DNA of 64,000 nt, taken from a phage. Each line of letters begins with the position of its first letter. The stretch's first letter is position 1. The position numbers were made by a program, and so were the translations under genes. The notes below the pieces were generated by a model, which was not told the DNA's origin, did no database searches, and saw only the letters and a list, made by a program, of their open reading frames with translations. Positions 10,481 to 61,778 of the stretch are shown piece after piece. The DNA lies in sequence record PZ445524.1; one strand, given 5' to 3'.

Positions 10481-10618
10481 TCCATCGTGATCTGCGTCTG
10501 TCATAATAGCGACATTCGCATAGTTCATTGAAGAGGATTTAATAGAACGACGAACATTGTTCTGCAATTTATATTTTTTCATATCAACGCTAGAAGAATC
10601 AATTTTTACAAATTTCAT
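10481..10618 (-). CDS. 60: DNA topoisomerase II small subunit gp60, segment 1 (codons 1-46)
   Basis: MKFVKIDSSSVDMKKYKLQNNVRRSIKSSSMNYANVAIMTDADHDG then UAG; GyrB-C-terminal-like TDADxDG motif. Confidence 0.9.
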
Positions 10619-11417
10619 TATACACCTCATAGAACTTTTCATCAGGAATCCAACCGCGTTTAAATTCATTAAATGCTCGGCCGAATAATTTTGAATTCAC
10701 AGTTATATTATTAACTGATTTCCATTTAGCAACTCCCGTTCGTTTATAATGATCGGGGTCATATTTCGTGACGTACCATTCATATAAATTTGGTATTAAT
10801 TTTACAGCCTCTGGATTTGTCGCTGATTTATTATACCATGGTTTCGCTTTTTCAAGTTCAGCTGCTTTTGCAGTAGCAGCAACAGTATTTCCAATACCAA
10901 CTAATTTTTCAGCTTTAATGCGTGGATCATTAACATGAAGACGAAAAACTTCGCCTTTTTCATTTTTAAAGCATGTCATGCCTTTAATTCCAGGAAGCTT
11001 AACACCTTTATTAACACCGCACCATTCCTTTGGGTTAAATGATCCTTTAATTAATAAGGCGCATTTACCCGATTTAATACTTCTCATTAAAACTTTATCT
11101 TTCATAAAGTTTTTTGACCATTCAGATACTGCTCTTTGATGGTAAATTCTAGCAATTTCATATAATTTACTAGAACGTAAATATTTTTCAGTGTTTAACA
11201 TTCTATTCATCGCATATGCCATTTCACGATTACGATGAATTTTATATAGTAGAAAATGTGCTAAAAAGTGTTCACGAAAAGTCAGTTTCACCAAATTTTC
11301 TTTATCATCAGAACCTCCCATTGATCTTGGAAGGATATGATGAATTTCACCCTTAAATTTAGAAACGCGGGTTTTACCCCGCACTATTAAGTCATTATAG
11401 ATTTTTTCGTAATTCAC
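10599..11417 (-). CDS. mobA: HNH homing endonuclease MobA
   Basis: 272 aa; HNH motif EIHHILPRSMGGSDDKENLVKLTFREHFLAH; located between 39 and 60. Confidence 0.85.
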   Translation of the reverse strand: MNYEKIYNDLIVRGKTRVSKFKGEIHHILPRSMGGSDDKENLVKLTFREHFLAHFLLYKIHRNREMAYAMNRMLNTEKYLRSSKLYEIARIYHQRAVSEWSKNFMKDKVLMRSIKSGKCALLIKGSFNPKEWCGVNKGVKLPGIKGMTCFKNEKGEVFRLHVNDPRIKAEKLVGIGNTVAATAKAAELEKAKPWYNKSATNPEAVKLIPNLYEWYVTKYDPDHYKRTGVAKWKSVNNITVNSKLFGRAFNEFKRGWIPDEKFYEVYNEICKN

Positions 11418-16532: not shown

Positions 16533-17216
16533 TTATCGTTTTGTTGGAAGAGATAGAGGATCGCATTCTTCCTCTGATGGAGCGTCTTCAAGACCCATAG
16601 CATACCGCAAAGCATACTTCATCATCAGGATGTCTTTCGCACAGTCATGAATAGAATCATGTGCAACAAATCCATCTAAAGTTCCCTTTGGAAGGGGGCA
16701 TGTGGTCATATCACGAACAAGGAGAAGTGCTTCAATTCTGGTACGAATATCACGCTGATTCCAGAATTTACATGGTTCTAACTTAAATGTGTCAAGTTCA
16801 TTCTCAGAAACACCATTAAGACGTTGAATATCACGAATGAGATCGACTAAAATTGGAAAATCAAACGACATTCCACGGCACCAGCCTTGAGATTTCCAAG
16901 GATCGATATTATGCGCATTGATGTAATCATTAAATTTTGCAATACCATCGATGGTGCTTACATCTTCATCTGATGGTGCAATATTTTTTCGAGCTTCAGG
17001 AGACTGATTTTTCCACCATTCGATAGTGCTTTTAGTAAAAAGACGATGTCCTTTTTGGCTTTTTAAATCAAATTTGATTTTAATGCCGCGTGAAACTAAT
17101 TCATCAAATGTTTCAACTACTTCTGGGTTAGGGTCAAAAGCAATTACAGCTAAATCAATAACAGCTGCTTTTTCACCACTTCCCATTGTTTCAAAATCTA
17201 TAATAAAATCAAACAT
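16533..17216 (-). CDS. dexA: exonuclease A (DEDD-family 3'-5' exonuclease)
   Basis: 227 aa, T4 DexA length; N-terminal DFET motif; position upstream of dda region. Confidence 0.85.
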   Translation of the reverse strand: MFDFIIDFETMGSGEKAAVIDLAVIAFDPNPEVVETFDELVSRGIKIKFDLKSQKGHRLFTKSTIEWWKNQSPEARKNIAPSDEDVSTIDGIAKFNDYINAHNIDPWKSQGWCRGMSFDFPILVDLIRDIQRLNGVSENELDTFKLEPCKFWNQRDIRTRIEALLLVRDMTTCPLPKGTLDGFVAHDSIHDCAKDILMMKYALRYAMGLEDAPSEEECDPLSLPTKR

Positions 17217-17491
17217 TAAATTTTCCTTGCTAAATCGCGAATTTGACCTACAGTATAGTCTTGAATATAAACTTTATTAATAGGTTCATCAATAAATTTT
17301 GCCATAGATTCAATATCTTTTTGCATCTCTTCAAGACTGTATATTATCTTTAAAGCTTTTTCGCGAATAGTAATATTTTCAGGACCAGAATTTTTCTCAA
17401 TGACAGCTTTAACATTTGTCATAAGAGATTTAAACTGACACCAACTTAATTCAATCATTAATAACCGCCTTATAAAGATGGCTAATTTCAC
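17216..17491 (-). CDS. hypothetical protein (91 aa)
   Basis: ORF track. Confidence 0.55.
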   Translation of the reverse strand: MKLAIFIRRLLMIELSWCQFKSLMTNVKAVIEKNSGPENITIREKALKIIYSLEEMQKDIESMAKFIDEPINKVYIQDYTVGQIRDLARKI

Positions 17492-17711
17492 CTAAAATGT
17501 AATCACTGATTGTAACAGTTTTTACTTCACCACAAAAGAATTCTAACGCAATCAAATCTCGTTCAATTTCTTCCAATTGAAGCATTAACTTGCCTGATTC
17601 AGTTTTCACATTTTTGCGATTTTTGCTATAAGCTATTTCATAAATTTCGCTTACTTTATCTTGAAGAAGATAAAACTGATCTTTAGTTATTTCCACGAAT
17701 AGCTTCCTCAA
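17451..17711 (-). CDS. hypothetical protein (86 aa)
   Basis: ORF track. Confidence 0.55.
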   Translation of the reverse strand: MRKLFVEITKDQFYLLQDKVSEIYEIAYSKNRKNVKTESGKLMLQLEEIERDLIALEFFCGEVKTVTISDYILGEISHLYKAVIND

Positions 17712-17717
17712 ATTTAA

Positions 17718-19037
17718 TCATACATAAAATACATCATAACGACCACGGGTAACACCAACATAAAGAAGTTGTTGGGCCAATTCAGCATCTGCATAATGAA
17801 TACAAGGCGTATAAATGAAAGCACGGTCTACAGACATACCCTGAGCTTTATGGAATGTTGATGCAGGAAGTGCTTTCACTTTACTGAACTGTGATTTAGC
17901 ATCCCAAAAATCACTCCACGGAGCTTTTCCGCCTTTGTTCCAATTTTTATAAGTTTCTGCCGTTTTACCTAAAAATAAATTAAACTTATATAGCTCTTCA
18001 TCAGATGAAATTATTTTAATCTTTTCACGATAATATTCATCATCGCCGTAAGTTTCTACTGTTAAATCCCAATGACGAATTAAGTATTCTCCAGAAACAC
18101 CACGAGCTTTAACAAAGGTTGATGTATACTCTGCTTCTATAATACGAACTAATTGTCCGTTATTAAAAATAATTTCTGACACAGGCTTTCCATCAATTTT
18201 ATATGTTTTAATTAATGGTTCCTGCATTACAATAATTTCACCGACAATAAAATCTTTATCAGTTTCAAAAATCTTTTTACGAATAATGCTATTTAACTTG
18301 TCAACAGATTTATTCGTAAATGCCATTACACGATTTTCAAACAAATCATCTAGTGATTTGACGATTGAAAAATAATTTACCATAAAATCGCGTAAAGCGG
18401 TATCACCAGTAAATCCACGTACTCCATGCCCGTCAACAACTTTATCATAAATCCACTTACCGTTACGAACGTCAGTAGCTACATCAATAATAGGAGCATT
18501 ACTGCGTTTAACTTCAGTGAGTTCACACTGATAAAAATCTTTATGTGTAAAGAATGGACTGATATAAGCAGTATTTTCTCCTGGGTCAACAGGTCTAATT
18601 TGCTTATTATCACCTATTCCAATTATGGTACACCAAGGTGGAATAGTTGAAAGCAGAATTTTAAATAGCTTTCTATCATACATTGACACTTCGTCGCAGA
18701 TTAATACCCTGCATTTAGCTAAATCTGGTACTTCCTTCTGCTCGAAGAGGACATTTTCTTCATATGTTACCGGGTTAATTTTAAGAATGCTATGAATAGT
18801 ACTTGCTTCTTTCCCTGATAGTTTTGAAAGAATCTTTTTAGCTGCATGAGTAGGAGCTGCTAAAATAATACCAGTTTCACCCGTAGATATTAAAGCTTCA
18901 ATGATGAACTTAGTAAGAGTAGTCTTACCAGTACCAGCAGGTCCATTAATAGTTACATGATGTTTCTTTTCTTTAATAGCCTTCATAACAATGTTAAAGG
19001 CATTTTTTTGACCTTCGGTCAAATCATCAAATGTCAT
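17718..19037 (-). CDS. dda: Dda DNA helicase (SF1B)
   Basis: 439 aa; Walker A GPAGTGKTT; T4 Dda length. Confidence 0.95.
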   Translation of the reverse strand: MTFDDLTEGQKNAFNIVMKAIKEKKHHVTINGPAGTGKTTLTKFIIEALISTGETGIILAAPTHAAKKILSKLSGKEASTIHSILKINPVTYEENVLFEQKEVPDLAKCRVLICDEVSMYDRKLFKILLSTIPPWCTIIGIGDNKQIRPVDPGENTAYISPFFTHKDFYQCELTEVKRSNAPIIDVATDVRNGKWIYDKVVDGHGVRGFTGDTALRDFMVNYFSIVKSLDDLFENRVMAFTNKSVDKLNSIIRKKIFETDKDFIVGEIIVMQEPLIKTYKIDGKPVSEIIFNNGQLVRIIEAEYTSTFVKARGVSGEYLIRHWDLTVETYGDDEYYREKIKIISSDEELYKFNLFLGKTAETYKNWNKGGKAPWSDFWDAKSQFSKVKALPASTFHKAQGMSVDRAFIYTPCIHYADAELAQQLLYVGVTRGRYDVFYV

Positions 19038-23630: not shown

Positions 23631-23867
23631 TTAACCACCTATTTCTGTTGGCGTAAACATTGCAGCATTCTTAGTTTTCCAGTCAGCTGCATCAGAAACT
23701 ACAGTAGAATATGCCGCCTTTTCAGAAGGAAAGGTCTGATAATGAGAATCTGCAATACGATGCTCGTTAGAATAGATTTCAAATGGAACAGAAACTTCCA
23801 TACCTTTAACTTCTTTACCTTCACCTGCTGGATGAGTAAAGGTCTTTATATTAACGAAACCACCCAT
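23631..23867 (-). CDS. soc: small outer capsid protein Soc
   Basis: 78 aa; HYQTFPSEKAAYSTV block recalled from Soc; late promoter TATAAATA and AAGGAG SD upstream. Confidence 0.8.
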   Translation of the reverse strand: MGGFVNIKTFTHPAGEGKEVKGMEVSVPFEIYSNEHRIADSHYQTFPSEKAAYSTVVSDAADWKTKNAAMFTPTEIGG

Positions 23868-23898: not shown

Positions 23899-23906
23899 TA
23901 TTTATA
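23899..23906 (-). promoter_or_regulatory. late promoter TATAAATA (gp55-dependent) for soc
   Basis: exact TATAAATA on minus strand about 30 nt upstream of soc ATG; overlaps stop codon of the HNH gene. Confidence 0.7.
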
Positions 23907-24753
23907 AACCATTTTCAAATCTCTTTATCATGTTTATATAATTTTCGTCAGGATAACCTAGGCTAACTGCTAGCTTTCTAAAATTGACATATTTAGGTTT
24001 GTTGTTATTAATCCATAATTCTCTAAGCTCTTTTTCATAATTCCATTTAAGTTGATTTCTGCGTGCAATTTTGCTTAAAGTTTTTCCTTTAGCTTTTAAA
24101 GCTTTTTCAGATGACTGTTTTAATTTTTGAATATTTAAAACTTCTTCTATAGATAAATTATTTTCCTTTGAATATCTTATGCAAAAATCTTTTACTATGG
24201 CTATTAGGCAATTTTTGTGAGTACCTAAAATTTCTGGATTATTTTCTTCAACTAAAATTCCCCAATACCTTCGATAGCGAGGCATATCCCTTGAAATCCA
24301 GTCATTATACCAAAAATCAAAGTTGGAATACATGAAAGATTTTCTTTTACGAAGAGTATCTTGGTTTATCCATTGCTCACGTTTATCAGCCCATAACTTA
24401 ATAGTAAAGTCTTTCTCTAAGTCAGAAAGCTTCTTAAATTGTGAGCTATTTACTGAGGTCATTCTCTGGAATGCATTCAGCAATCCAAATCTTCCAGTTG
24501 AACATAAGAGATAGTGAACATATATGTGTTGATATATTGGGAGATATACTCTATTCCAAGGATATATTTTAAAATCACTATACTCAGGAAATGCACATTT
24601 AGGAAGTATATGATGGGCTTCTGTTTTAGATTTAATGTGAGTGTTTAACTTATACTTATCTATAATTTTTAAATACTCATCTAAAAGTTCCCATTGCGGG
24701 AACTTTTCTTTAAGAGCAGATTTGAAATTAATATCCATTATCTTGACGTTCAA
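23902..24753 (-). CDS. free-standing HNH homing endonuclease (283 aa)
   Basis: HNH-like motif EAHHILPKCAFPEY similar to MobA/MobD-type motifs; basic C-terminal region; between soc and 56. Confidence 0.7.
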   Translation of the reverse strand: MNVKIMDINFKSALKEKFPQWELLDEYLKIIDKYKLNTHIKSKTEAHHILPKCAFPEYSDFKIYPWNRVYLPIYQHIYVHYLLCSTGRFGLLNAFQRMTSVNSSQFKKLSDLEKDFTIKLWADKREQWINQDTLRKRKSFMYSNFDFWYNDWISRDMPRYRRYWGILVEENNPEILGTHKNCLIAIVKDFCIRYSKENNLSIEEVLNIQKLKQSSEKALKAKGKTLSKIARRNQLKWNYEKELRELWINNNKPKYVNFRKLAVSLGYPDENYINMIKRFENGL

Positions 24754-25246
24754 AATTATGTTTGTTCTTCAAATAATAAAGTTTAAAGATTTCTTCAGCC
24801 GACATTCCAAGAGCAATAAATTTATTCATGAAAAAGTGAAATTGGTCAATCAGTTCAAATTTAATTTCAAGCTGATCTTCGGGAGATAAATCTTGAATTT
24901 TCTTGGATTGCATTTCAGAATAACGTTTCTTCCAAGGTTTCCATACAGCAGAAGCTTCTTTTTCACCATTACTCATACCACCAAGAGAAGTATATAGCTC
25001 GCGAGTTTCGTCTGCGATATAATCGTCTTGGTTTCGCAGCCAAGCAAGAACTTCTCCTGCAGTTTCAAGTGAATCGGGATGACGATTTGTTTCTGGTTTA
25101 TCATTAGCCAAACGAATCTGTAAATGCCGCTGCATATCAAGCATAACCTGCAATGGGTCTTTTTCATCACCGAGAATATCCCAGTATTCATTTTGAGCTT
25201 TATCAACACCTTCGATCAAATGAGCACATTCATTAAAGTGAGCCAT
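24728..25246 (-). CDS. 56: dCTP pyrophosphatase (dCTPase)
   Basis: 172 aa from MAHFNECAHLIEG; MazG-like; track N-terminal extension rejected because it runs through the RBS of an opposite-strand gene. Confidence 0.85.
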   Translation of the reverse strand: MAHFNECAHLIEGVDKAQNEYWDILGDEKDPLQVMLDMQRHLQIRLANDKPETNRHPDSLETAGEVLAWLRNQDDYIADETRELYTSLGGMSNGEKEASAVWKPWKKRYSEMQSKKIQDLSPEDQLEIKFELIDQFHFFMNKFIALGMSAEEIFKLYYLKNKHNFERQDNGY

Positions 25247-25317
25247 TATTTTTCCTTTCAATTCATGGGTTAGTAGATTAATTATACAATAAATATATAA
25301 AGCAATAAGGAGGACAT

Positions 25318-25518
25318 ATGGTACAAAAATTAATGGCACTTGTTGATGCCATAAAAGGTAATAAGAAACGTATAGCTTTTACTATTTCTGCTATGGTAGG
25401 AATTTTACTCTGGAACTTTATTTTATCACCTGTTGCAATTGCACATGGTATTAATATTCCAGTAGTTACTCTTGATACATTCGTAGATTTAGCATTTGCT
25501 TTAGTTGGGTTAATTTAA
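25318..25518 (+). CDS. small hydrophobic protein (66 aa), plus strand
   Basis: perfect SD AAGGAGG at 25307-25313, 4 nt before ATG; intergenic between 56 and 61; two hydrophobic segments. Confidence 0.6.
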   Translation: MVQKLMALVDAIKGNKKRIAFTISAMVGILLWNFILSPVAIAHGINIPVVTLDTFVDLAFALVGLI

Positions 25519-26543
25519 ATCTTAGCATATTTAGATAGCCGCATTTTAGCCATCAACCCCTGGGCAATATTATTTTTCATATATTCCATAATTTGTTCAG
25601 GGGTTGCACCTTCCTTTCTAATCATATCATTAACATCTTTTGATTTCCAGGGAGATTTATCCCAAAACATAACCCTTTCTCCTGCATCAACTAATTTAGT
25701 CATCCGTTTAATAGTGTCAGGGTGACGAGGTTCATTATCTAAAACCCACACTCGTCTATCTTTAAATGGAACAACTTCTAGGTCTAATTGACCACCCGTA
25801 ATAGCTATACCATTTTCAATAAAAAGTGAATCTATAGGTCCTTCTAGAACATATACATCACCATCTTTAACTCGTTCGACTCCATAGATTTTTGTTGCTT
25901 CAGGATAAGCTTTGATGGTGATATATTTTTGAGGAGCATCTTTCTTTAATGCACGTCCTTGAAAAGACTCAGCTTTTCCATTAGCATTATAAATTGGAAT
26001 AACAAGACGAGGCTCAGAAATTTCCTTTTTATATGTTCCCGGTGCTATGCTATTAACCAATTTAGGCCATTCGGTTGTAAACCAAAGATATTTCCATTTA
26101 TCCTTTGGAATACAACGAGCTTTTACATATTTTATAATTGGATGGTCTTCCGCCAGTTTATCTAATCTAACACATGACGGAAGAGATTTAATTATTTTCT
26201 TCTCAGGTTGTTTAGGAAGTTCTTTAGGTTTTTCTACTGGACGACTTTTACCTTTTTCTTTTCTTATTTCAAAGATATACTCACGATATAAATCAGGTTC
26301 AAACTCCTTTAAATATATTCCGATTGGTGCATGATAGTTACAGTTATAACAATGAATATTTCCTTCATTATTATCACCATAATACCATCCACGGGCTTTA
26401 TTTTGGTCGGTTTTTGAATCTCCACACACTGGGCATCTAAACCGTAATTTAAAAGTTGAACTATTATTTACTTGTGTGAATTTAGGTAAATGAGCTAATG
26501 CACGGTATGCAAACTCATTATCAATCCAAGGTATTGATGACAT
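25515..26543 (-). CDS. 61: DNA primase
   Basis: 342 aa; N-terminal zinc ribbon CPVCGDS...CYNC; T4 gp61 length. Confidence 0.95.
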   Translation of the reverse strand: MSSIPWIDNEFAYRALAHLPKFTQVNNSSTFKLRFRCPVCGDSKTDQNKARGWYYGDNNEGNIHCYNCNYHAPIGIYLKEFEPDLYREYIFEIRKEKGKSRPVEKPKELPKQPEKKIIKSLPSCVRLDKLAEDHPIIKYVKARCIPKDKWKYLWFTTEWPKLVNSIAPGTYKKEISEPRLVIPIYNANGKAESFQGRALKKDAPQKYITIKAYPEATKIYGVERVKDGDVYVLEGPIDSLFIENGIAITGGQLDLEVVPFKDRRVWVLDNEPRHPDTIKRMTKLVDAGERVMFWDKSPWKSKDVNDMIRKEGATPEQIMEYMKNNIAQGLMAKMRLSKYAKI

Positions 26544-29991: not shown

Positions 29992-31147
29992 TTAACTGTT
30001 CAAGGTCAGTTTCTAAATCAGCTGCTGATTTACTTTTACTTTCTGGAGATTTAAATTTTTCAACCTTTGAGTTAATCAATTCATCAACTTCAGCTTCAAC
30101 AATTTCATTACTATCAATAGCACCTAACTGATAAGCACGTTTAATAGCATCTCGGAATGGTTGATGCTTAAATAAAGGACCCCAGAATGTAGTACAGTTA
30201 GTATCTTTTGCACGCCAAGATTTTTCTTCGCGAATCATCTCGCCGGTTTCTTCGTCAAGAAATTCACGAGCATACCAGCCATTTTTTGGTTTTACTACAA
30301 ATCCTAATTCTAGAGCCATATCTAACAATCCAGAATAAGGATCGATACCACCGTCAAATTTAACATCAATAAAGAATTTACTTTTTTCTTTAACGGTACG
30401 AGATTTTTCTACATTTAGAACAAATTGATACCCCTGAAGATCAGAACCATCTTTAATCTGACGCTTACCGATAATGAATACAGTATCAGCCGAATACATT
30501 ACGCCTGTACCACCTGTCATCACGGTTTTACTAAACATTTCAATTGTTTCAATTGTATGGTTAACCGCAACACATGGAATATTTTTAATGCTAAAATAAG
30601 GAGTAACAATACGGAATAATGACTTCAGTGATTTAGCACGAGTCATATCTGCCACAGATTTTTCATTCAAGGCATCTTCCGTTTCTTTCTTAGAAGCCAT
30701 ATTACCGATTGAGTCGATGAATACAATAACCTTTTCACCACGCTCAATAGCTTCAAGCTGGTTCACCATATCAATTTTCAGCTGTTCAACTGACTGAATT
30801 GGCGTATGAATTACTCGTTCCGGGTCAACTCCCATGGATCGCAAATAAGCTGGAGTAATACCAAATTCGCTATCATAGAATAAACAAACCGCGTCAGGAT
30901 ATTTGTTCAAATACGCTGCAACCATAGTCAAAGACATATTTGATTTAAAGTGTTTAGAAGGCCCTGCGAAAATAGTTAAACCAGACTGCATACCGCCATC
31001 AATCGCACCAGAAATAGCAATATTAAGCATTGGGATTTTTGTGCGAATTACATCCTTTTCATTAAAGAATTTAGATGTAGTCAGTTCAGCAGTCATTTTA
31101 GAAGTGGAAGCTTTAATCAAACGGGATTTTAAATCTGCAATAGACAT
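29966..31147 (-). CDS. uvsX: UvsX recombinase (RecA-like)
   Basis: 393 aa; Walker A GPSKHFKS; RecA fold; T4 UvsX length. Confidence 0.95.
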   Translation of the reverse strand: MSIADLKSRLIKASTSKMTAELTTSKFFNEKDVIRTKIPMLNIAISGAIDGGMQSGLTIFAGPSKHFKSNMSLTMVAAYLNKYPDAVCLFYDSEFGITPAYLRSMGVDPERVIHTPIQSVEQLKIDMVNQLEAIERGEKVIVFIDSIGNMASKKETEDALNEKSVADMTRAKSLKSLFRIVTPYFSIKNIPCVAVNHTIETIEMFSKTVMTGGTGVMYSADTVFIIGKRQIKDGSDLQGYQFVLNVEKSRTVKEKSKFFIDVKFDGGIDPYSGLLDMALELGFVVKPKNGWYAREFLDEETGEMIREEKSWRAKDTNCTTFWGPLFKHQPFRDAIKRAYQLGAIDSNEIVEAEVDELINSKVEKFKSPESKSKSAADLETDLEQLSDMEEFNE

Positions 31148-31454
31148 TCATTTTTTCCATAGGCATCATTATATTTTTCTCGCGGTTTATAATAAAGGGT
31201 TTATACTTAGAGTTTAACTACATTAAAACTTATTTAAGATAGAATAATTTTATCACTCAATCTTTTAGCATTATCGCTTGAAGTCTCAGTTAACTGAGCA
31301 TTTGGCTATTCGATGAACTTCTCTCTTTTCTAATCAATATAACAAAAGAAGTCCCAAAAAGCAAACAGACCTAAACCGATAATAAGCAATAAAGGTCCTA
31401 ACATTTATTCCACCGGTTAAAGATAAATAACTTTCTAATAATAGTTCATAATTT

Positions 31455-43681: not shown

Positions 43682-44884
43682 TTATTTTGTAATAATGTCA
43701 AACTGTTCTTTAAAGCAGAAGCTTGAATCTTGATGCTGATACAAAAATTCATATGCTTTTTCTCGCTCACGGTCATAAAGAGCTCGGTCAGATGACAGTT
43801 CTTTAATACGTTCAAATGTTGATTCCATGTCATTTTCATCAAACCAAATGATACCGCTATCATGCGAGGTCAAAGGAGTATTATCAACACGGAATTTTAA
43901 ATTTTCGCCAGTAGATTTCCAGAAAACAGGAATTGTACCGCAAGCACCTAATTCAAGATGAGTATATTCGAGTGAGCGTTGTAAGTATTTCTGGTTAAGT
44001 TTACTCAACTGATATCCAAAGCCAGATTTACTCATTCGTTCAAGCATTTCACTATTAATATAACAATCTAGGATTTGTGCCGGTTGATTCGGCGCGAGAT
44101 TCATTTTATCAATCTCACGATTACCGTAATATTCATACGGAATACCTTTTTCCTTAATTGCAATAAAAGCAGGGGAACGTTCAAGACCTTCCATTACAGT
44201 GGATTTACCAGAAGGTTTTAAGAATTTTTCGTGAAAATCAAACATCTGATAAAAACCTTTCCATGTAGTCGTACGACCAATCCAACGGTTGATGTTCATG
44301 TTAATTTCAGAAACATCTTTCCAATAAGTTGACCGAACCTTCGCAATATCCATAGGAGGCTGAAAGTTATATACTGTCGGTGCTTCTTCAATATCATCAA
44401 ACAGAGAAACAGTTTCTGGATACCATTCTTTCATCAGAACTTTATTAAAATCACCATTATCAGAATGGCTAAAAATAACATCAGCTCGACGAACAGTTTC
44501 TTCTAATCCCAAATTTCGACGCAAAGAAAGAACAGAATGATCATGCTGATAAACTACAACACGAATAGAAGGTTTAATATTATCTAAAAGTTTTTTATAG
44601 TTATTAATCGTGGCTTCTTGAACGGAAGTAGCAGGAACAGAATTAATAATTAGAATATCACAATCATTAATCAGTTTAAGTGCTTTATCGTATTCTTTAG
44701 CTAAAATAACTGGAATTGAAAATGATTTGTGGTCATGAGAACTTGTACGAGTAAATGATTTATCTTTAGCATAAACCAAAGTTACTTCATGACCATTTTT
44801 AATAAACCAATCACGTTGCTCGAGTGAGAATTTTGTTACACCACAACCTTCAAGACCCCGAGCCAGAAAAATGCATACTTTCAT
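43682..44884 (-). CDS. agt: DNA alpha-glucosyltransferase
   Basis: 400 aa, T4 alpha-gt length; position between 55 and 47. Confidence 0.9.
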   Translation of the reverse strand: MKVCIFLARGLEGCGVTKFSLEQRDWFIKNGHEVTLVYAKDKSFTRTSSHDHKSFSIPVILAKEYDKALKLINDCDILIINSVPATSVQEATINNYKKLLDNIKPSIRVVVYQHDHSVLSLRRNLGLEETVRRADVIFSHSDNGDFNKVLMKEWYPETVSLFDDIEEAPTVYNFQPPMDIAKVRSTYWKDVSEINMNINRWIGRTTTWKGFYQMFDFHEKFLKPSGKSTVMEGLERSPAFIAIKEKGIPYEYYGNREIDKMNLAPNQPAQILDCYINSEMLERMSKSGFGYQLSKLNQKYLQRSLEYTHLELGACGTIPVFWKSTGENLKFRVDNTPLTSHDSGIIWFDENDMESTFERIKELSSDRALYDREREKAYEFLYQHQDSSFCFKEQFDIITK

Positions 44885-44908
44885 TTAATATCCTCTTTGT
44901 TTTGGTTC

Positions 44909-48923: not shown

Positions 48924-49394
48924 TTAATCATGTTTCCACACCCCATCGGTATTTGACCAAAGCCGCTGATTATCTGATCCTCGCCACAGCTTTTTAGTCG
49001 GAAGATTTTTCTCATACTTCCCATCAATAATAACATCAACATATTTAAGCATTTCTAGTTGTTTAATATCTTCAAACTTATATCCAGTCCACAACCAAAT
49101 GCTTTTATTGGGATAAAGATTTTTTACTGTTTGAACAATGCAATGAATAACATCTCGGTTATCAGGATAGAGAGGGTCACCTCCGGTTATAGTCAATCCT
49201 TCTATATAATCATTATTCAAACATTCAATTAATTGTTCTAGTGTTTCACCAGTGAATGGAACGCCATTTCTAGCATTCCATGTTGATTTATTATAACACC
49301 CTTCACATTTATGCAAACAGCCTGTAACGAAAAGAACGGTCCTGCAGCCAGGACCATTAATAAAATCGCAAGGATAAAATCTATCATAATTCAT
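48924..49394 (-). CDS. nrdG: anaerobic ribonucleotide reductase activating protein (radical SAM)
   Basis: 156 aa; CxxxCxxC-type cluster motif GCLHKCEGC. Confidence 0.9.
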   Translation of the reverse strand: MNYDRFYPCDFINGPGCRTVLFVTGCLHKCEGCYNKSTWNARNGVPFTGETLEQLIECLNNDYIEGLTITGGDPLYPDNRDVIHCIVQTVKNLYPNKSIWLWTGYKFEDIKQLEMLKYVDVIIDGKYEKNLPTKKLWRGSDNQRLWSNTDGVWKHD

Positions 49395-51208
49395 TGGTGT
49401 TTAACCCTATGCATGATTTCTTTATTTTTGCCGAGATTAAATCCGCGTTCGTTCGGATTTCCCAAATAACCACACGTTCTTCTTATTGTGTTCATCTTTT
49501 TAGGATCAGTTTCTCCACAAATAGAACAAACAAATCCGTTTTCAGTAGGAGTCATTTCATGGGTACTTCCACATGTAAAACATTTATCTACTGGCATATT
49601 AACACCAAAATAATCTAAATGTTGTGCAGCATAATCCCACACGGCCTCAAGACCTTTCAAGTTATTTTTCATATCAGGAAGTTCAACATAAGAAATGTGA
49701 CCACCTGTCGCAATGAAATGATATGGCGCTTCACGAGAAATCTTTTCAAACGGAGTAATATTTTCTTCTACTGAAACATGGAAACTGTTAGTGTACCAAC
49801 CTTTATCGGTAACATCTTTTACGCTTCCATATTTTTCTGTATCGAGTTTACAGAAGCGATAACAAAGGTTTTCAGCAGGAGTCGAATATAAACTAAAAGC
49901 AAATCCAGTTCTTTCAGTCCACTGTTTAAGACGAGCATTCATTTTAGTTAAAATTTCTCGTCCAATATCACGACCGGCAAGAATATTCAATTCGTGAATA
50001 CCAATGTATCCTAAAGACACTGAACTTCTACCGTTTTTAAATAACTCAATTATGTCGTCATCAGGTTTAAGACGAACCCCGAATGCACCTTCTTGGTAAA
50101 GAATAGGAGCAACAGTAGCTTTAACTCCTTTTAAGGAACTAATTCTACACATCAAAGCTTCAAAACATAAATCCATTCGTTCATTAAATAGCTCAACAAA
50201 TTTCTGTTCATTGAACTGTGTTCCAATATAAGAATCTAACGCGATGCGAGGAAGATTCAGTGTTACAACACCAAGATTATTACGTCCATCAAGAATTTCA
50301 TTACCAGTCGAATCTTTCCATACGCTCAAGAAACTACGGCATCCCATCGGAGAAACAGGAACAGATGAACCAGTGATAGCTTTATTGTTCTTAGCTGAAA
50401 TAATATCAGGATACATCCTTTTGCTTGCACACTCTAGAGCAAGCTGCTTAATATCATAGTTCGGATCATCTTTATAAAGATTAACACCTTCTTCGACGAA
50501 CATAACAAGCTTAGGGAAAATAGGAGTTATCCCATCACGACCAAGACCTTTAATACGATTTTTCAGAATTGCTTTCTGAATCATTCGTTCAGTCCAGTCA
50601 GTTCCCGTACCAAATGTAATTGTTACAAAAGGTGTTTGCCCGTTTGAACTAAAGAGAGTATTTACTTCATATTCATAAGCTTGGAATGCATCGTATACGT
50701 CTTTTTCTGTTTTAGATTGAGCATAATTCAACGCATCAGCGATTTGCCATTTTTCTGCATCTTCAATATGTTTTGCATAGGTGCGTTTAACATAAGGAGA
50801 AAGTACTTTATCTACATTCGCAAAAGTCGTTCCGCCGTATTGGTGAGAAGCAACCTGTGCAGTAATTTGTGCCATAATTGCAGTAGCAACACCGATTGAT
50901 TTAGGAGTTTCAATCTGCGCATTACCAAGCTTAAATCCGTTCTCAAGCATTCCTTTTAAATCTACTAAACAGCAATTAGTAAATGGAAGAGCAGGGGAAT
51001 AATCAATATCATGGAAATGAATAATTCCGCTTTCATGCGCTTTCATAATAAAAGACGGGACCATATTTTTGGCAATGTGTTTAGACACAATACCAGCCAT
51101 AAGGTCCCGTTGAGTTGGAAAAACACGAGAATCTTTATTAGCATTCTCGTTTAAAAGGTCTTTATTAGTTTTATGAATCAATCCTTCAATTTCTTTTTCA
51201 ATTGTCAT
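49391..51208 (-). CDS. nrdD: anaerobic ribonucleoside-triphosphate reductase, uninterrupted
   Basis: 605 aa continuous ORF; C-terminal glycyl-radical and Cys-rich region; 4-nt overlap with nrdG. Confidence 0.95.
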   Translation of the reverse strand: MTIEKEIEGLIHKTNKDLLNENANKDSRVFPTQRDLMAGIVSKHIAKNMVPSFIMKAHESGIIHFHDIDYSPALPFTNCCLVDLKGMLENGFKLGNAQIETPKSIGVATAIMAQITAQVASHQYGGTTFANVDKVLSPYVKRTYAKHIEDAEKWQIADALNYAQSKTEKDVYDAFQAYEYEVNTLFSSNGQTPFVTITFGTGTDWTERMIQKAILKNRIKGLGRDGITPIFPKLVMFVEEGVNLYKDDPNYDIKQLALECASKRMYPDIISAKNNKAITGSSVPVSPMGCRSFLSVWKDSTGNEILDGRNNLGVVTLNLPRIALDSYIGTQFNEQKFVELFNERMDLCFEALMCRISSLKGVKATVAPILYQEGAFGVRLKPDDDIIELFKNGRSSVSLGYIGIHELNILAGRDIGREILTKMNARLKQWTERTGFAFSLYSTPAENLCYRFCKLDTEKYGSVKDVTDKGWYTNSFHVSVEENITPFEKISREAPYHFIATGGHISYVELPDMKNNLKGLEAVWDYAAQHLDYFGVNMPVDKCFTCGSTHEMTPTENGFVCSICGETDPKKMNTIRRTCGYLGNPNERGFNLGKNKEIMHRVKHQ

Positions 51209-60004: not shown

Positions 60005-61051
60005 TCATTTATAATAACTTCGGTGGTTTTCAAGATAGACCTTCTCAAGGAAGTCATCCCAGAAACCCATGTCTACTTTTTGCTGCATACCGTTCTTAGA
60101 AGCTTCAGTAGATGCTGCTTCTACTTGATCGACCACATCTTCCAAAAACTCTTGAACCGTTTTAAATGGATGTTTACCCAACTTCACGTCGAGAATAAAT
60201 GGAGCGTCTTTGAGTGGATAGACTAAGTCGCCAGTTTTGTAAATTTCCAATAGTTGAAGTCCACCACGACAAGCATGGCTCAGAGCTTTCCAGTCAATGC
60301 CTTCGTTGGCTTCGGCCTTACGAGCGCGTTCACCATATTCAGCATCTAATTTGTTCAGTGACTGCTTAAGCTCAATAAGAGAAAGAGTTGTCTGATATTT
60401 ACGACCCAACACAGTGTAGAACGTTTGTGGGCCTGTTTTCTCATGATTATGAAATACCCATTCACAGAACTCGTTCTCTGGAAGACGATGCTTAATATCT
60501 TCAACTTTAGTGCGACGCTGCTTAATAGAACCATCTTCTTGGTAATCAACCCATTGCTCAGGGATTTGATTAACTACTTTCAATACATCGCGTAATGCAG
60601 CCAAACGAGAACCCTTGACACCGTATTTAGAAGCTTGCTTGCGAACATATCCTAAATATGATTTCATGTTAGTCGTATAAAAACGAGAACGGTTGTCTTG
60701 AATAAACTTCCACACATCAGGCAAATCAGATTTAACCACTAGCTCAGGTGGAGTGTGAAGCATATCTAATGCTACAGTTTCACCATCTGCTGCTAATTTA
60801 AAGAAATACTTAAGACTGTATAGTTCATGGTCAATATCATCTTTAGTGTTTTTAGATGATGTGTTGTTAGTGTTTTTACTCATATGCTCTTTGACGTTTC
60901 CGATAAGAATATCGCGAGCAGGAGGAACAAAAATTTCTTTAAAATCTACATCAGATTCTGGGGTAGAAGTTCCATAAAGATGACTACCAAAATAAGACTT
61001 AACTACAGTTTTCATTATTAGACCTTTCATAATCTTCATTAAATTGTACAA
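60005..61051 (-). CDS. putative nucleotidyltransferase-fold protein (about 335-348 aa)
   Basis: N-terminal GS...D.D pattern (GSHLYGTSTPESDVDF) typical of pol-beta-superfamily NTases; true start may be ATG at 61015. Confidence 0.55.
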   Translation of the reverse strand: MYNLMKIMKGLIMKTVVKSYFGSHLYGTSTPESDVDFKEIFVPPARDILIGNVKEHMSKNTNNTSSKNTKDDIDHELYSLKYFFKLAADGETVALDMLHTPPELVVKSDLPDVWKFIQDNRSRFYTTNMKSYLGYVRKQASKYGVKGSRLAALRDVLKVVNQIPEQWVDYQEDGSIKQRRTKVEDIKHRLPENEFCEWVFHNHEKTGPQTFYTVLGRKYQTTLSLIELKQSLNKLDAEYGERARKAEANEGIDWKALSHACRGGLQLLEIYKTGDLVYPLKDAPFILDVKLGKHPFKTVQEFLEDVVDQVEAASTEASKNGMQQKVDMGFWDDFLEKVYLENHRSYYK

Positions 61052-61778
61052 TCAATCGATGATAATTAGATTTTGGATATCCTAATTTACTTATATAAGT
61101 TCCGAATGACCCACGTTTAGGTCTATTTAATTTAATCCATAACTTATAAAGTAAGTCATAGTCTTGCCAATGTTTACCAGTTCTTTGTCTAATTTTAGAT
61201 GAATTTGATTGTTTCTTTTTAGTTTCAAAATTATTCAAAGATTTTTTGACTGCAGCAGAGTGTTTTTCTTTAACTCCCGGTCGTTTAAAAGCAGCTTTCA
61301 CCCCTTTAGATATTTTTTCTTTAACTTCCGGTTTGTTTTGTGCTTCTAACTGGGATTCTGAAATTTTAGCCCTTATTTCAGGAAGACTTAATGTTATCGA
61401 ACGTTTTTCTCTGTATTCATTAGACTTCCACATTTCTTTCATTGTATTAGAATGTATTTTTGAAAATTTTTCTCTAACTAACTGATATCCTCTTGAAGTT
61501 AATTTGAGATTTCTTCCTAAAGAATCTTCTCCAAAATTATAAAATGACCACCATGCATAAATTAATCCAGGCGAATTATAATGAATTTTAGCTAAAAGCC
61601 AATGGGCTATAAAATGCTCTCTAGCTGTTAATAAAACTAGATTATCAGAATCATCATTACCACCAATACAAGATGGAATAATATGATGCTTTTCCGTATA
61701 AAAATTTAATTTAGATTTATCTAATTTTCTGAGTTTTCCTTTCTTAATTAAATTATTATATACTTTAGTATAATTCAT
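60999..61778 (-). CDS. HNH homing endonuclease, MobD-like
   Basis: 259 aa; HNH motif KHHIIPSCIGGNDDSDNLVLLTAREHFIAH; N-terminus similar to MobA. Confidence 0.8.
   Translation of the reverse strand: MNYTKVYNNLIKKGKLRKLDKSKLNFYTEKHHIIPSCIGGNDDSDNLVLLTAREHFIAHWLLAKIHYNSPGLIYAWWSFYNFGEDSLGRNLKLTSRGYQLVREKFSKIHSNTMKEMWKSNEYREKRSITLSLPEIRAKISESQLEAQNKPEVKEKISKGVKAAFKRPGVKEKHSAAVKKSLNNFETKKKQSNSSKIRQRTGKHWQDYDLLYKLWIKLNRPKRGSFGTYISKLGYPKSNYHRLIVQFNEDYERSNNENCS

Follow-up and report, generated by a model that had tools for sequence, protein, structure and literature searches.

The open reading frame located between soc and gene 56 in phage sequence PZ445524.1 (64,000 nt, the whole of which is here called the window and to which gene coordinates refer) belongs, judging by its conserved residues and domain arrangement, to the T4 Mob family of free-standing HNH homing endonucleases, with a MobD-like architecture. 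Mob-type and Seg-type genes at this site are probably alternative cassettes carried on one adapted allele of gene 56, where one has replaced the other. An earlier note made from the sequence had described the frame as an HNH endonuclease with a basic C-terminal region, placed at a homing hotspot which in T4 holds SegF, a GIY-YIG enzyme that excludes gene 56 of competitors. These points were borne out by the results given below, and the exclusion is documented for gene 56 of T2 (PMC2330249, PMC2988022). The further idea of the note, an independent invasion of the locus, gave way to a probable replacement, because carriers of the two genes have in common the end of gene 56, the start codon and a homologous C-terminal module.

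By blastn, the window is a T4-like (Tequatrovirus) segment collinear with T4 from position 1 to about 50,000, with 80-99% identity. Read along the minus strand, primase 61 (25515..26543) is followed by gene 56 (24728..25246), the Mob-type ORF, and soc (23631..23867). The downstream neighbour, coding for the small outer capsid protein, was recognized by Pfam Soc (7.8e-20), and gene 56 (dCTPase/dUTPase), the likely target gene, by PHROG 173, NTP pyrophosphohydrolase (1.4e-41). The longest frame covers 23902..24753 on the minus strand and codes for the 283 amino acids reported in the earlier note, starting at TTG (24753), which adds 5 codons to the version starting at ATG (24738). Considering that this ATG is annotated in close relatives and that distant homologues start at the equivalent residue, the better model for the Mob-family HNH homing endonuclease gene is 23902..24738 (minus strand, 278 aa). 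Its start overlaps the end of gene 56 by 11 nt. In the T4 sequence the soc-56 interval is occupied by segF. Proteins 98-99% identical to the Mob-type ORF are found in PhiZZ23, fPS-2, and Pu-Krd-SF4 and are annotated as HNH or homing endonuclease, and GenBank already labels the gene “HNH endonuclease” or “homing endonuclease.” Our search of the literature found no paper analysing this soc/56 Mob-type gene.

The word-indexed protein search returned only 3-6 proteins, and an exhaustive search of cluster representatives was used instead, where 726 representatives matched the Mob-type ORF at E<=1e-3. Matches were also obtained with PHROG 655, “homing endonuclease” (1.8e-33), and phrog_12434, “HNH endonuclease” (5.5e-10). 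Taking into account these PHROG matches, the number of homologous representatives, and the dN/dS between orthologues (0.04-0.16 along the whole ORF, dS reaching at most 0.81), the frame is no chance ORF. In tblastn against phage genomes, T4 MobD aligned over 91% of it, and mobC and mobE over its N-terminal part. The Mob family has been described as a conserved N-terminal Mob HNH domain joined to a distinct C-terminal region (PMC2790892, PMC2988022), and MobA-E were placed by Jablonska et al. in group 1 of the His-Me finger superfamily (PMC5714182). The same combination of a conserved N-terminal Mob HNH domain and a distinct C-terminal region was found here, in a gene that is free-standing, intergenic, co-oriented with its neighbours, and inside a host transcription unit.

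The N-terminal nuclease domain (residues 1-130; 24349..24738, minus strand) is common to hundreds of homologues and was modelled by AlphaFold with a pLDDT of 94.8, the full-length model having 83. Inside it, the HNH (beta-beta-alpha-metal) core was delimited by invariant residues and the model to residues 38-79 (24502..24627, minus strand) and contains the motif EAHHILPKCAFPEY at residues 40-53. In an alignment of 11 sequences, formed by T4 MobB, MobC, MobD, and MobE together with metagenomic relatives, E40, H42, H43, I44, P46, N62, V64, L66, H71, and H75 were invariant, and H42, H43, P46, N62, H71, and H75 remained so when 76 sequences were aligned. In HNH and His-Me finger nucleases the H...N...H arrangement consists of a catalytic His closing the first beta-strand, a structural Asn, and metal-binding His residues in the next helix; here it is provided by H42, H43, N62, H71, and H75. 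The models predict two strands (residues 39-43 and 63-67) and then a helix (68-81) with a pLDDT >94, that is, a beta-beta-alpha pattern at the motif.

The Mob-type ORF itself gave no relevant match in Pfam, NCBIfam, or PDB by sequence and profile search, and three structure searches against solved structures retrieved no HNH fold at a significant score, only nonsignificant matches to Cas8-HNH (E 2.7-7). NUMOD3, I-HmuI_NUMOD-like, or HNH domains were present in some of its homologues, and the aligned segment of T4 MobB, MobC, and MobE attains the gathering cutoff of the Pfam HNH family PF01844. The spacer between the HH pair and N is 17 residues long in the ORF and 11 in the T4 Mob proteins, which is probably the reason why the ORF misses the HNH profile.

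The nuclease domain is followed by a helical linker (residues 131-199; 24142..24348, minus strand) with long helices in the model and a pLDDT below 50 at residues 134-159, and then by a basic three-helix module (residues ~224-278; 23905..24069, minus strand; pLDDT 96-98), a putative DNA-binding domain with the pattern W..ELxxLW..NxPK..F..xAxxLGYPDxNY..M..F. Residues 201-278 include 18 K+R and 7 D+E, with a pI of 10.15, the pI of the whole protein being 9.54. By alignment the module is common to T4 MobD, and it is also found in the SegF family.

Since T4 segF has the same locus, 11-nt overlap, and start codon, as well as a homologous C-terminal module, the ORF could be thought of as a divergent GIY-YIG orthologue of SegF that was misread as HNH. 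We give this practically no credence. The BLASTP comparison detected nothing similar in the N-terminal half (SegF residues 1-100), and the sole match to SegF was limited to a stretch of 26 residues in the C-terminal region (35%, E 0.07). The N-terminal 130 residues align with Mob HNH domains and not with the SegF motif; the conserved residues of the SegF-family signature YRTYI...YAGKH...GSG...H...E...N (Y24, G26, Y40, G42-S43-G44, H66, E76, N93) have no counterpart in the Mob-type ORF. With an N-terminal half that lacks SegF similarity and with the signature missing, the ORF is neither GIY-YIG nor a SegF orthologue, and a different nuclease family occupies the site of T4 segF.

The C-terminal module is a different case. 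Several metagenomic proteins that match only ORF residues ~200-276 are SegF-like and similar to T4 SegF over its full length, including the N-terminal domain. When carriers of the module were compared by hhalign, with the window ORF heading the Mob-type set and T4 SegF heading the SegF-type set, the two sets aligned over 103 columns with 99.8% probability (E 2.6e-28). This homology agrees with the description of segF as a “hybrid” endonuclease in a review (PMC2988022), and the module is a widely shuffled element. A common module does not imply a common target, and the idea that it conveys the gene-56 specificity of SegF was rejected: the SegF-like proteins with the closest copies (P0026, P0015) adjoin terminase genes in unrelated phages, the T4 SegF copy is not especially close to that of the ORF, which has closer relatives elsewhere, and the co-conversion tracts of the two genes differ, as described below. 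A recent in situ swap of the nuclease domain alone is also unsupported, given that the 3′ halves of the genes have no DNA similarity.

The Mob-type ORF was present in about 25 of the 706 phage records that matched the 1.9-kb region. segF is located at the 56-soc site in 50 records, and in other phages the site is empty (ECP52) or holds a small ORF (RB14, LilPanda). Considering that the occupant varies in this way, the 56-soc locus is a hotspot. The Mob-type gene is found, always at 56/soc, in five genera of Tevenvirinae, namely, Tequatrovirus, Dhakavirus (vB_EcoM_005), Moonvirus (KM16), Gaprivervirus (DK-13), and Jiaodavirus (SmallBear, from Klebsiella). Nucleotide identities were calculated against the window copy, the flanks being genes 61, 56, soc, and mrh.2. 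In SmallBear the endonuclease gene was 97.6% identical and the flanking genes were 58-71% identical; the corresponding values were 92.1% and 58-72% in KM16 and 85.5% and 70-82% in DK-13. The identity of the gene is far above that of its flanks, which indicates a recent crossing of genus boundaries. The sporadic presence at one homologous site, together with these signs of horizontal transfer, is what is expected of a homing endonuclease gene.

The dN/dS values indicate that the protein is under purifying selection and the gene functional. They weigh, together with the catalytic residues, all of them intact and invariant, against the proposal that the gene is a decaying or domesticated remnant, coding for a noncutting protein that is kept for the signals of its neighbours or as a DNA-binding regulator. 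Near-identical copies in genera whose flanks are 58-71% identical point to a recent spread, and the ORF was full length in five of the six orthologues compared. In favour of a remnant are the frameshifted copy in vB_EcoM_005, the fact that the activity of the protein is predicted from sequence, and the precedent of T4 itself, which has a defective mobA and a defective I-TevIII. It should also be considered that any deletion of the gene must be precise, its stop codon being part of the soc late promoter. On balance a remnant seems very improbable, and by these comparisons the gene is intact and recently mobile, an element of an ordinary kind.

Neither a sigma-70-like nor a late promoter was found between gene 56 and the Mob-type ORF, and no Shine-Dalgarno sequence was found upstream of its ATG. 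A stable, terminator-like hairpin starts 31 nt downstream of the start codon (24683..24707, minus strand), with a 10-bp stem AAAAGUUCCC/GGGAACUUUU and the loop GCAAU. In the 131-nt context its z score was -4.1, the annotation of fPS-2 treats it as a terminator, and its nucleotides are invariant across six orthologues although dS reaches the maximum mentioned above. A similar arrangement is described for segF, which is promoterless, overlaps by 11 bp, and has a terminator in its 5′ coding region (PMC2988022), and for mobE, which lacks its own promoter and has a terminator in the same region (PMC2988022, PMC2790892). The Mob-type gene would be cotranscribed with gene 56 and translated at a low level by reinitiation from the gene-56 message, and the hairpin would act as an attenuator. 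The vB_EcoM_005 record (L006, 3050-4800) contains in tandem a second, partial copy made up of the 3′ part of gene 56 and the initial ~60 nt of the endonuclease gene; the junction falls at the hairpin, and the endonuclease frameshift comes immediately beyond it. Recombination may have left this arrangement, or the assembly may be wrong. Partial duplication of gene 56 was suspected in KM16 too and rejected, the region being an unrelated MazG-like ORF.

By comparison with the empty site of ECP52, the insert corresponds to window 23907..24740. At its right end is the soc late promoter TATAAATA (23899..23906, minus strand), which overlaps the endonuclease stop codon (23902-23904); in ECP52 the box comes directly after gene 56. 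The T4 late-promoter box TATAAATA is found 2 times in the 64 kb, one of them being the soc promoter, when 11 ± 3 are expected from shuffled sequences. DK-13 has an additional ORF of 77 aa (L012, 1270-1503), placed between its endonuclease gene and this promoter.

At the other end, the 3′ end of gene 56 is linked to the presence of a nuclease gene. In the window its last codons are KHNFERQDNGY* (24728..24766, minus strand), with the endonuclease start codon at 24736-24738. This tail was seen in 8 carriers of either the Mob-type gene or segF from several genera; the ninth carrier examined, the divergent VR7 (segF), has KANFERQDHGY*. All of the five nuclease-free phages have AENFARQD(R/A)GY*, without an ATG at that position. 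In the nucleotide alignment of nine genomes (six carriers and three nuclease-free), ten positions showed fixed differences between carriers and nuclease-free phages, none of them outside the final 36 nt of gene 56. The 43-nt tail was present in 74 phage records and, among those listed, was always followed by segF or the Mob-type gene; no exact match to the tail pattern was found in IMG/VR. segF and the Mob-type gene start at the same ATG, inside GAT AAT GGA TAT TAA, and their first 11 nt are identical. Identity between T4 and the window runs through the stop codon of gene 56; starting with the following base the two sequences are unrelated.

These data were weighed against a fully independent invasion of a naive, empty soc/56 site, unconnected with segF, with a tail that would be convergent through the need for the overlapping ATG or through the same immunity mutations. 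Such an origin would explain why segF and the Mob-type gene lack DNA similarity past the gene-56 stop codon, why their catalytic domains differ, and why the C-terminal modules of T4 SegF and the ORF are only distant relatives. It is difficult to reconcile with the tail, which is 100% identical between T4 and the window over 43 nt, the remaining gene 56 being 80% identical. The ten fixed differences common to both classes of carriers include the K, H, and E codons upstream of the ATG, which the overlap does not need, and the start codon and initial 11 nt are the same in both genes. We therefore consider an independent invasion rather unlikely. The tail allele, start codon, and first 11 nt in common favour instead a cassette replacement, where the second arrival entered an allele already adapted by the first.

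The extent of gene 56 that accompanies each nuclease gene also speaks for an independent invasion, since it differs between them. The tail allele always travels along with the Mob-type gene as a co-conversion footprint. gp56 of the carrier SmallBear and that of its nuclease-free relative LilPanda are identical except for the tail, and in the window gene 56 follows the RB14/ECP52 type along its body until ~40 nt before the stop codon, where the T4 type begins. The segment travelling with the Mob-type gene thus consists of the ORF and at most 40 nt of gene 56. The segF carriers (T4, F1, VR7), and also DK-13, have the T4-type gene 56 from about codon 47 onward. This suggests that co-conversion reaches much further in them and that SegF cuts at a distance, in line with what has been stated in general about cutting far from the own gene (PMC2988022). 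This boundary may be the SegF cleavage region. The different tracts suggest different cut sites for the two enzymes, and later recombination could have shortened the apparent tracts. Gene 56 is a mosaic at its opposite end as well: the first ~100 nt are T4-like in the window, and PhiZZ23, ECP52, and RB14 have another variant in common there.

Returning to the replacement of one cassette by the other, we propose the following course for a mixed infection. On the model of MobE and I-HmuI, the Mob-type protein would bind the allele that lacks a nuclease gene and nick or cleave it. From the mosaic boundaries in a handful of genomes we infer a target site near the gene-56 tail; the cut would most probably fall within the last ~40 bp of gene 56, the only sequence between two conserved patches that is common to all the recipient backgrounds. 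The recombination-dependent repair of T4 would then copy the endonuclease gene and the tail allele of ~36-40 nt from the donor, and the polymorphisms of the tail would protect the carrier genome. Both the cleavage activity and the target of the protein are predictions.

A more specific proposal, which we put forward tentatively and at somewhat less than even weight, is that gene 56 has two kinds of ends, ancestral and nuclease-adapted. The adapted “docking allele” would provide a start codon and probably self-immunity, Seg and Mob genes would displace each other on it, and the Mob enzyme would cut less than ~40 bp from its insertion site. If this is true, the enzyme would be unlike the other characterised free-standing T4 endonucleases, most of which cut hundreds of bp from their own gene (PMC2988022), a fact that also weighs against so near a target. 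A cut at that distance would also explain the crossing between genera with ~70% flank identity, which would use the conserved patches GAAGAAATCTTTAAACT.TATTA (left) and TATAAATAC.CCTGTAA (right).

Other endonuclease genes were observed in the window and its relatives. An intact 272-aa MobA-type HNH ORF is located between genes 39 and 60 (10599..11417, minus strand); the homologous stretch of T4 is broken by frameshifts and annotated as gene 60.1 and a 37-aa “defective” mobA. Together with mobA and the soc/56 gene, a MobD orthologue of 259 aa (60999..61778, minus strand) brings the Mob-family genes of the window to three. In comparison with T4, blastn gaps at ~31135-31305, ~44875-44900, ~49374-49394, and ~50670-50673 show that segA, mobB, mobC, and the nrdD intron bearing I-TevII are missing from the window. 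Homing endonucleases are much fewer in this phage than in T4, yet it has one that T4 lacks. The 56-61 interval varies as well. The T4 dam methyltransferase gene (T4 16826-17724) is absent from window 25287..25518, where there is a 66-aa ORF on the plus strand (25318..25518) similar to RB32ORF030w. In fPS-2 (L003, 4249-4899) and relatives this interval contains a second Mob-type HNH endonuclease of 216 aa with the same kind of C-terminal module, so gene 56 of fPS-2 has Mob-type genes on both sides. A 651-nt “homing endonuclease” CDS is annotated between 56 and 61 in a Jiaodavirus (L014, 1757-2407) and resembles the fPS-2 gene in length and position.

The Mob-type gene adds a second endonuclease to the classic gene-56 marker-exclusion locus of T4 and T2. 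Otherwise related phages whose 56-soc site is empty or contains a small ORF, segF, or the Mob-type gene form a natural set, with which it can be asked how endonuclease families compete for one site and replace each other, how an allele of a host gene, with a start codon inside it and polymorphisms that confer immunity, becomes adapted to its parasite, and how far from its own gene a Mob enzyme nicks. In practice, the finding predicts which phages would exclude one another's gene-56 region in mixed infections or phage cocktails. The gene behaves as the Mob family is known to do and changes no concept in the field; its possible interest for specialists is limited to the start-codon-bearing allele of gene 56 common to both nucleases and the short conversion tract.

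Among known systems, I-HmuI (PDB 1U3E), an HNH nicking endonuclease, is similar in its modular construction, with an HNH domain, an extended linker, and a helical DNA-binding module. It is intron-encoded, whereas the Mob-type ORF is free-standing, and it is classified as HNH_3/group 2 His-Me, in contrast to group 1 for the Mob proteins (PMC5714182). The sequence, profile, and structure searches with the Mob-type ORF gave no sequence or fold match to I-HmuI.

A replacement of one endonuclease class by another has precedent in T-even phages, where SegH/Hef replace mobC/mobE (Sandegren et al. 2005, as cited in PMC2988022). As summarized there, the phenomenon is the same, with different endonuclease classes at one intergenic site and one target gene, and it concerns the nrd loci instead of 56/soc. 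To our knowledge, a common start codon and tail allele have not been described for that case.

T4 MobE belongs to the same Mob HNH family, lacks its own promoter, overlaps with its start the upstream essential gene, and has a terminator hairpin in its 5′ coding region, as the Mob-type ORF does. It targets a conserved gene next to its own, polymorphisms protecting the carriers (PMC2790892, PMC2988022), and it makes an HNH-dependent strand-specific nick in T2 nrdB (PMC2790892). Unlike the Mob-type ORF, MobE is 141 aa long and has another C-terminal region and nrdB as target. Its nick is hundreds of bp from its gene, whereas the mosaic boundaries suggest a much nearer site for the Mob-type enzyme.

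T4 MobD, a candidate endonuclease (PMC2988022) located at the nrdC.11/mobD.1 locus, has the same N-terminal Mob HNH domain (E-x-HHI-x-P...N-x-V-x-L...H-x3-H) and the same type of C-terminal module (HW..Y..LY.LW...N.PK..F......LGYP..NY) as the ORF. The two share no more than ~25-26% identity; they sit at different genomic sites and presumably act on different targets, and the ORF differs further in its longer HH-N spacer and its linker. T4 SegF (gene 69) has the identical insertion site, gene-56 tail allele, ATG, and first 11 nt, a terminator-like hairpin early in the ORF, a stop codon in or at the soc late promoter, and a C-terminal module of the homologous family. Its nuclease domain is GIY-YIG-type and that of the Mob-type ORF is HNH, the gene bodies have no DNA similarity, and gene 56 is co-converted over a long tract in segF carriers and over a short one with the Mob-type gene.
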